Shown: positions 61,781 through 62,083 of the stretch, piece by piece
Numbering within the stretch: position 1 is the stretch's first letter
Layout of the letters: each line of letters begins with the position of its first letter
Assembly: GCA_037200965.1 (NCBI GenBank)
Contig: JBBCGK010000001.1
Coordinates: 160,001-224,000, forward strand
From: a bacterium
GTDB lineage: Bacteria; Patescibacteriota; Minisyncoccia; Phycocordibacterales; Phycocordibacteraceae
Direction of reading: 5' to 3'
DNA: 64,000 nt
Translations under genes and position numbers: made by a program
The notes under the pieces: model-generated
The model's input: the letters and a program-made list of their open reading frames with translations, nothing else
Told to the model about the DNA's origin: nothing
Database searches by the model: none

Positions 61781-62083
61781 CGCGCCCGCGGAACATGCTA
61801 AGTTGATTTTGAACCGATCTTTGATATGGCGATGAGAAAAAGAAAGGGTGTTTTCGGACATCCCGGCACTTTTTCTCATCCTTGAGACGTTCCGGGACCG
61901 GAGTTATCTCCGAGTCCTAAGGGTCCACCGGCATGCCGGAACGGGACTTCTGCCCTGTAACAGGGCGGCCGCGAGGCCAACAAAACCCCGCTTGTCTTGA
62001 TCACGCCCCCCTGATCTGAACGCGATATATCTTACTCTCTTCGGCCCTCCGAGAGGAGGTGCTACTACTAGAACTGCGCTTAG

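Follow-up and report, generated by a model that had tools for sequence, protein, structure and literature searches.

The guide RNAs of type V-F CRISPR systems pair with the repeat through one long and one short (pseudoknot) repeat/anti-repeat duplex, and mismatches in the short duplex strongly reduce the activity of AsCas12f1 (PMC11246509). In the V-F1 systems (Cas14a1/Un1Cas12f1 and AsCas12f1), the pseudoknot comprises 5–7 bp at the extreme 3′ terminus of the repeat, immediately upstream of which lies a longer, bulged duplex (PMC11246509). The NanoCas-like Cas14a tracrRNA has been described as two stem loops with two unpaired repeat-complementary segments, conserved < 100 bp upstream of the array (bioRxiv 10.1101/2025.01.29.635576). 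The dCas12f proteins (dCas12f-sigmaE and the CRISPR-associated dCas12f cluster) have a Cas12f-like fold and are truncated at the C terminus, with the loss of part of RuvC; they are found in Bacteroidota, mostly without CRISPR arrays, and their guide RNAs were found by covariation upstream of arrays (PMC13472631). The scoutRNA of Cas12c and Cas12d is a short noncoding RNA beside the array with few repeat-complementary nucleotides, the TnpB ωRNA (reRNA) places a scaffold directly 5′ of the guide, and the type II tracrRNA of Cas9 forms a single anti-repeat duplex of 25–40 bp. Cas12m (type V-M), on the other hand, uses a crRNA alone, which it processes itself, and retains a noncanonical RuvC triad and a target-nucleic-acid-binding domain; to our knowledge, it has no tracrRNA. 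This small Cas12 confers protection by DNA binding and not by cleavage (PMC10442227, PMC11013384).

The locus described here was studied in a 64-kb stretch of DNA, hereafter the window, in which positions 61777–62002 very probably comprise the promoter and gene of a tracrRNA belonging to a CPR-specific, Cas12f-like type V CRISPR system. Read along the plus strand, RmuC and an IS30-like element are followed by the effector gene (58216–59937), an intrinsic-terminator-like hairpin with a T-run (59953–59985), a short cas1 (59999–60730), an IS481-family element (60692–61771), a noncoding region of 303 nt, the CRISPR array (62084–62619) and a second intrinsic-terminator-like hairpin with a T-run (62637–62674), after which come rplU and a second IS30-like element. 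The 303-nt region is bounded by the transposase stop codon (61778–61780) and the start of the first repeat (62084). The array contains seven identical repeats of 40 nt followed by an eighth, terminal repeat truncated to 25 nt, and its spacers are 31–32 nt in length except for the last (44 nt). Allowing up to 25% mismatches, no spacer had a match elsewhere in the 64 kb, and spacer 1 was absent from IMG/VR.

The effector, a protein of 573 aa, was recognized by PADLOC (Cas12_x1, 'CAS-V-F effector', E 1.5e-57) and had no sequence match in Pfam or the PDB. An AF2 model of the protein (pLDDT 82.5) gave Cas12m2, CnCas12f1, AsCas12f, dCas12f (PDB 9n9c) and TnpB as its top Foldseek matches, with Cas12m the best of these, while a profile search against dCas12f gave no sequence-level match. 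A word-indexed protein search returned only the effector itself; an exhaustive search recovered 62 effector representatives, none of them more than 37% identical to the window protein, which is the most divergent member of the family and is also longer than its relatives (400–550 aa).

The catalytic residues of the family were examined in the aligned sequences. The column of the RuvC-I aspartate holds V293 in the window and alanine in 31 of 42 relatives, and is never acidic. The proteins stop ~ 40 aa past the GGSV strand with 0–1 cysteines in the last 80 aa, and both the zinc finger and the RuvC-III motif are absent from the family, as judged from alignment columns and cysteine counts. The effector therefore has neither the intact RuvC D-E-D triad nor the zinc-finger/TNB domain by which an active Cas12f is recognized, and in this it differs from the V-F1 effectors, with which it shares the Cas12f fold. 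Since the RuvC-I aspartate, the zinc finger and RuvC-III are all missing, the protein probably binds target DNA without cutting it, which would be the binding mode of Cas12m. The CPR family differs from dCas12f in having kept cas1 and arrays with diverse spacers, and in having no sigma factor gene.

Relatives of the effector were located in 56 loci by genome and metagenome scans (19 and 37 loci, respectively), and the named genome loci are nearly all from CPR/Patescibacteria MAGs. Their usual order is effector, Cas1, ~ 200 nt of noncoding DNA and a same-strand array with a truncated terminal repeat, after which a terminator-like hairpin and T-run are placed as in the window. No match was found between ~ 100 family spacers and the INPHARED phages. 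One locus (L044) is flanked by an IS481-type transposase gene that its newest spacer matches at 32/32 positions, and tolerance of such a perfect self-target fits a noncutting effector. Literature text searches found no description of the CPR effector family, which is not proof of absence, and the family may be one of the groups V-U6 to V-U45 of PMC10691335. The surrounding system, which is CPR-wide, has a truncated Cas1 and lacks the RuvC-I aspartate, zinc finger and RuvC-III, may be a new variant or, equally, an uncharacterized V-U group of that study.

The window cas1, whose product starts MNALWL, matches Pfam and TIGR00287 at profile positions 90–325 of 327 and lacks the N-terminal ~ 85–90 residues of canonical Cas1. 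The Cas1 proteins of the relatives (233–257 aa) are missing the same ~ 85–90 residues, so the short cas1 is a family trait and not a pseudogene or a remnant. Its codons from 60692 onward, which specify the last 12 residues and the stop, are derived from the insertion sequence. This 1080-bp element encodes a transposase with the Pfam domains HTH_32, rve and rve_3, carries imperfect terminal inverted repeats (TGCACAAG... and ...CGCGTACA) and is flanked by a 5-bp target duplication, GCTGC, at 60687–60691 and 61772–61776; a DDE (rve) transposase, terminal inverted repeats beginning with TGT/TGC and a short target duplication are the marks of the IS481 family. An independent contig (L021) breaks at 60719, inside the left inverted repeat, and no further IS481 copies were found in the window. 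The transposase ORF (60737–61780) runs past the right end of the element and across the duplication into the sequence TTGACG (61777–61782), which is the −35 box of a sigma70-type promoter. As this −35 box is kept, to the right of the duplication, in relatives, the native boundary of the insertion is fixed: IS481 landed in the last cas1 codons with the 5-bp duplication separating it from the −35 box, and replaced those codons only, leaving the promoter intact. The same type of element appears at L044, as the transposase gene to which the newest spacer there is directed.

The predicted promoter occupies 61777–61804 on the plus strand, with a 16-nt spacer between the −35 box and an extended −10, TGcTAAGTT (61796–61804). 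Its pattern, TTGAC[AGT] or TTGATT followed after 16–18 nt by a TAnnnT −10, was found in all 13 loci compared, in most of which the −10 is preceded by TGn, and it always lies ~ 30 nt upstream of the conserved RNA arm UGAGAAAAAC described below. A strict promoter scan of the window missed it because the −10 matches at only 3 of 6 positions, and it was found through the comparison of loci. Transcription would start at ~ 61811.

The noncoding stretch before the array could be aligned across the loci, almost every one of which carries a structured RNA of ~ 175 nt directly upstream of the array and on the array strand. With 12 relatives, and leaving the window out, we built a covariance model (R1). 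Searched against the 64 kb, it gave one real match, at 61830–62002 on the plus strand (37 bits, E 3.5e-8), which is full length (model positions 1–179); in nearly all other loci it found the RNA at 58–143 bits, often as two inverted copies flanking the effector and cas1. Rfam 15, searched at permissive E-values over 57000–64000, contained no matching family. RNAalifold predicted five helices; of their 33 pairs, 18 show compensatory changes. Among 42 distinct copies of the RNA, 95.8% of cells were paired against 39–50% with slid partners, and double (compensatory) changes were seen in 21 of the 33 pairs, although the alignments behind these counts were fitted to the model and consist of related sequences, a bias in favour of the structure. 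The strand of the RNA follows from two conserved G.U pairs. The window copy itself folds at −74.7 kcal/mol (z = −3.75).

Stem 1 of the window RNA (61831–61880) is the perfect 12-bp inverted repeat that had already been picked out by eye, GATGAGAAAAAG (61831–61842) and CTTTTTCTCATC (61869–61880), and its 26-nt interior contains an apical hairpin (61846–61852/61857–61864). The arms, UGAGAAAAAC and GUUUUUCUCA, are nearly invariant in the 42 distinct relatives, and the G:C that the window has at a C:G position is a compensatory flip that 5 of them share. The arms had been taken to derive from the repeat, with which they share GATGAG. That origin was not borne out, since they are near-invariant whatever the repeat of the locus and stay constant even where the repeats lack GATGAG, so the shared hexamer is coincidental. 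Stem 2 (61894–61903/61908–61918) covaries in relatives and is followed, in the window alone, by an additional hairpin that falls within a 35-nt insertion relative to the model, the two together spanning 61894–61948. Helix 3 (61952–61966) follows, then a short hairpin, GGCC-GCGA-GGCC (61967–61978), which stands at the position of stem 4 in the MFE structure. Stem 5 and the motif GATGAAGC, near-invariant in relatives, are absent from the window copy, being deletions in the model alignment.

Two segments of the RNA track the repeat. The first is the loop of helix 3, which in the family has a 4-bp stem and a 7–9-nt loop ending in a hexamer; in the window it reads GCCC-UGUAACA-GGGC, and the stem covaries GC/CG. 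The hexamer is complementary at 6/6 positions to the last 6 nt of its own repeat in 12 of 12 loci, and then in 42 of 42 distinct pairs, with 10 different hexamers among the 42 relatives (for example, GUAUCG/CGAUAC, GUGUCA/UGACAC, GUGCCG/CGGCAC and GUAACC/GGUUAC). In the window, the hexamer GUAACA (61957–61962) faces the repeat end UGCUAC at 5/6, with an A.C mismatch at 61960. The second segment is the 3′ tail, CCCC-g-CUUGUCUUGAU (61986–62001), which pairs with repeat nt 19–33 (GUCGAGAUGAGGGGG). Across the family, the partners of the tail (GAAAACCCC..UGCUC) are the G-run and the GAG motif that immediately precede the final 6 nt of the repeat, and tests of own against other repeats on the aligned 3′ tails gave permutation p = 4e-5 and 8e-5. 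The window tail, CCCCgCUUGUCUUGAU, forms with repeat nt 19–33 a 15-bp duplex containing one bulge (−22.0 kcal/mol), a value reached by 0 of 2000 shuffles (mean −11.8, sd 2.5); its own repeat ranks 1 of 13, and cofolding selects the same pairing. A MAFFT alignment that put stem 5 and the tail inside 62003–62040 was rejected, because the posterior of the model alignment is high at AAAACCCC and only the model register gives the repeat pairing. The predicted anti-repeats, supported by covariation, lie at 61957–61962 and 61986–62001.

Comparison with the described systems places this RNA closest to the V-F guides in layout. As in V-F1, the tracrRNA is flanked by the cas genes and the array, shares the strand of the latter and has a long multi-stem scaffold, and the 5–7-bp pseudoknot and longer bulged duplex of V-F1 have their counterparts in the 6-bp loop pairing and 10–15-bp tail pairing of the CPR family. 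Differences from V-F1 are the A/U-rich stem 1 of near-invariant sequence and the distance between the tail and repeat 1, which is 0–14 nt in the relatives with no terminator or promoter between, so that one transcript is likely; the terminator scan of the window also found none between tracrRNA and array. By its description, the NanoCas-like tracrRNA looks similar to the 3′ module of the window RNA at 61952–62001 (bioRxiv 10.1101/2025.01.29.635576), but NanoCas is an active nuclease of ~ 450 aa with a tracrRNA of ~ 50 nt, whereas the CPR RNA is ~ 175 nt and has three further stems. TnpB has a related protein fold, and a tracrRNA tail abutting repeat 1 resembles a split ωRNA; the CPR locus nevertheless has a real array and cas1, its effector is not flanked by transposon ends, and its scaffold and repeat are separate. 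The pairing split into 6 and 15 bp in the window is unlike the single duplex of type II, and no Cas9 is present at the locus. A scoutRNA, which the first-pass annotation had offered as an alternative to a tracrRNA, does not fit an effector whose fold is that of Cas12f, Cas12m and TnpB rather than Cas12c/d, and the pairing through two segments, of 6 and 10–15 bp, follows a Cas12f-like arrangement. Its other suggestion, a tracrRNA with an anti-repeat beside the array, named the right kind of molecule, as the family RNA has two repeat-tracking segments in a Cas12f-like locus. With an effector and an array alongside, a short duplex, a long bulged duplex and a structure kept by compensatory changes, all of which are features of Cas12f-type tracrRNAs, the RNA appears to be a so far undescribed member of that type, an assignment made by analogy of locus, duplex layout and effector fold.

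It could be that the RNA is a tracrRNA by descent but that the locus is defunct, the window copy being a decaying pseudogene in an IS-ridden locus. The copy is the most divergent of the family and its 37 bits are the lowest model score among all full-length copies; stems 4–5 are largely deleted, 35 nt are inserted after stem 2, and the A.C pair at 61960 is the sole loop mismatch among 43 loci. The gap from the tail to repeat 1 is 81 nt (62003–62083) compared with 0–14 nt in relatives, the locus has three IS copies inside or next to it, and spacers 1 and 3 are identical duplicates. Given the low score, the missing stem 5 and GATGAAGC, the loop mismatch and the 81-nt gap, the window tracrRNA may be impaired or defunct in the source genome. 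Against a defunct locus, four assemblies carry the same intact effector ORF, the seven repeats do not differ from one another and the promoter is intact; moreover, stem 1 has undergone a compensatory flip, stems 2 and 3 are kept, the fold is strong and the long anti-repeat duplex is the strongest in the family. A divergent tracrRNA would also be expected from co-evolution with the most divergent effector (≤ 37% identity), and co-evolution is as likely as decay to account for the divergence of the window copy. Taken together, we consider a defunct locus less likely than not, though it is the alternative to be taken most seriously.

Far less probable is the placement of the anti-repeat in the first-pass annotation, which saw in 61857–61915 an imperfect antisense copy of the whole repeat; such a segment would pair functionally with the pre-crRNA in the manner of a type II tracrRNA or a scoutRNA. 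Interrupted pairing does exist there. RNAduplex gave 29 interrupted, collinear pairs between repeat nt 6–36 and 61859–61908 at −36.0 to −36.9 kcal/mol, and among 13 repeats compared for the segment the window's own came first. This energy is only marginally above chance, however: dinucleotide shuffling of the segment equalled it in 3.7% of cases and shuffling of the repeat in 0.6%, as did 1.8% of all windows of 80 nt in the 64 kb. When intramolecular folding was taken into account by cofolding, the net gain was an ordinary −10.2 kcal/mol (background, −7.05 ± 3.57), which 20% of random windows equalled, and the homologous segment in 12 relatives showed no preference for the repeat of its own locus. 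Neither the repeat nor its reverse complement gave a significant local alignment to the leader; the best antisense alignment fell at 62007–62017 and was equalled by 13% of shuffles. The main pairing blocks are, in addition, parts of the conserved structure: CAUCCC pairs with GGGUG in the apical hairpin, UCUCAUC is the 3′ arm of the invariant stem 1 and GGACCGGAG is the 5′ arm of stem 2. The segment was chosen by eye among many possible patterns, and the apparent antisense copy overlaps stems 1 and 2 by coincidence. The predicted anti-repeat bases are ~ 100 nt downstream of it.

Hardly any probability attaches to a third reading, in which the region is a decayed CRISPR array of degenerate repeats and spacer remnants without an RNA gene. 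This draws on the 81 window-specific nt that separate the tracrRNA tail from repeat 1 (62003–62083), roughly the length of one repeat–spacer unit, which contain an antisense-like string (62005–62022) and a string resembling the repeat 3′ end, CCGAGAGGAGGTGCTAC, within which CCUCC-GAGA-GGAGG can form a hairpin as in relatives' repeats. The latter string had been reported from 62046; it is present but starts at 62049 and extends to 62065. Its best local alignment to the repeat, GAGGAGG-TGCTAC (62053–62065) against GAGGGGGATGCTAC, matches at 13/14 with one gap, yet 22% of shuffled versions of the 303-nt region, and 21% of other windows of that length, score equally well, so that the likeness is at chance level. 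The would-be spacer is 18 nt rather than 31. An nhmmer profile of 29 family repeats, with the window's left out, scored true repeats at only 2.8 bits and is therefore useless for judging a pseudo-repeat. Above all, 61830–62002 matches a conserved, covarying RNA that is not a repeat, and array decay, which had been offered as another origin for the resemblances, could apply at most to 62003–62083. It is just as improbable that the element acts as DNA or in cis, as a leader for Cas1 integration or the 5′ UTR of the array, rather than as a trans-acting tracrRNA: it adjoins repeat 1 and probably shares a transcript with the array, and CRISPR leaders are conserved beside arrays, but five helices kept by compensatory changes and strand-specific G.U pairs indicate selection on RNA, the two pairing segments track the repeat 3′ end and not the leader–repeat junction, and the effector falls within the tracrRNA-dependent Cas12f fold group (PMC11246509).

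Under the preferred interpretation, that of a Cas12f-type tracrRNA, transcription from ~ 61811 would be driven by the sigma70-type promoter and would run through the tracrRNA and the array to the terminator at 62637–62674, a consensus match that would end the transcription unit. The tracrRNA would then pair with every repeat in the manner of Cas12f1, by a short pseudoknot duplex together with a long, bulged one, and so present the repeat and the downstream spacer to the effector. Once loaded, the Cas12f-like effector would bind DNA, probably without cutting it, like Cas12m and dCas12f. The ends of the RNA, its processing and its binding by the effector are what we infer from sequence.

What had been a resemblance spotted by eye becomes a defined RNA gene, with a promoter, five helices and two predicted anti-repeats with their repeat partners. 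For this purpose, repeat complementarity judged by duplex energy alone misleads, because the real anti-repeats consist of short, separate segments, one of them in a loop, and only a comparison of loci brought them out. In the source genome, IS481 landed beside the −35 box with a 5-bp duplication between and spared the promoter. More broadly, and only tentatively, the locus may represent a CPR-wide, uncharacterized adaptive system that combines a Cas12f-like protein without zinc finger, RuvC-I aspartate or RuvC-III, a Cas1 without its N-terminal domain, no Cas2 and a promoter-driven tracrRNA–array fusion transcript, and that would use cleavage-free DNA binding for immunity, against phages and insertion sequences, or for gene control. 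No guide RNA described for this miniature Cas12f-like family was found in the literature, and one is now defined; the covariance model and the pairing rules would allow single-guide RNAs to be designed for these proteins of ~ 400–450 aa, which probably bind DNA without cutting it.

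Many loci that encode relatives of the window's Cas12f-like effector carry two tracrRNA-array modules, mutually inverted, on either side of the effector-cas1 genes (loci L002, L010, L018, L031, L033, L038, L051, L055 and L057). In L002, where the modules lie at L002:4510-5139 and L002:7318-7792, as in some other double-module loci, the spacers differ between the two, while elsewhere, as in L018, the modules are mirror copies that could be assembly artefacts. One locus, L016 (JALHRL010000051.1), belongs to a MAG labelled Bacteroidia, all other named genome loci being from CPR; its contig is 3.3 kb long, and the label is probably a binning error.

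The Cas1 proteins of the family are 233-257 aa in length and are missing their N-terminal domain, which corresponds to roughly the first 85-90 profile positions. Such a short cas1 was located in the window (59999-60730) and in L003, L008, L010, L011 and L017, and no cas2 was seen; the family arrays nevertheless contain diverse spacers. A strong terminator-like hairpin followed by a T-run (window 59953-59985) separates the end of the effector ORF from the start codon of cas1 (59999), and thus the window cas1 sits behind a terminator.

Downstream of the tracrRNA, the string GCCCCCCTGATCTGAACG (window 62005-62022) has an antisense-like match to repeat nt 18-34 (13/16 pairs) and is paired with repeat 1 in the MFE fold. 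The match was not significant, as 13% of shuffles were as good and the fold gave z = -1.35. The string falls inside the unexplained 81 nt before repeat 1. Within the array, spacer 1 (62124-62154) is identical to spacer 3 (62266-62296), which points to tandem duplication of a 142-bp segment comprising two repeat-spacer units. The array closes with a 44-nt spacer and a repeat shortened to 25 nt; a truncated terminal repeat followed by a terminator is common to the window array and its relatives. Two family spacers, one in L002 (TGTGGAGATGGGCGGGGTCGAACCGCCGTGT) and one in another locus (ACGGGGAATCGAACCCCGATTGCCGCCTTG), resemble by eye tRNA 3' ends (T-arm and acceptor stem) in antisense orientation, and their source could be tRNA or att sites of phages or integrative elements.

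IS30-like elements lie on either side of the window CRISPR locus, at 57105-58148 (-) and 63081-63980 (-). The element at the right end of the window recurs, with 100% identity, at 14775-15819, and the IS30-like elements are break points of short, independent contigs from the same organism. Weak Rfam matches to miRNA families at window 60875-60919 were spurious, being caused by a hairpin (20 nt, 90% complementary) inside the IS481 transposase ORF.

The leader-proximal spacer of L044 (the first after L044:5345) is identical (32/32) to L044:2091-2122, a target with the 5' flank ..AAATGTCC within an IS481-type transposase gene (HTH_32/rve/rve_3) directly upstream of the L044 effector. The encoded transposase shares 32% identity with that of the window's IS481. 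Tolerance of this perfect self-target is compatible with a non-cutting effector, and the self-target hints at conflict between IS481 elements and the CRISPR loci of the effector family.
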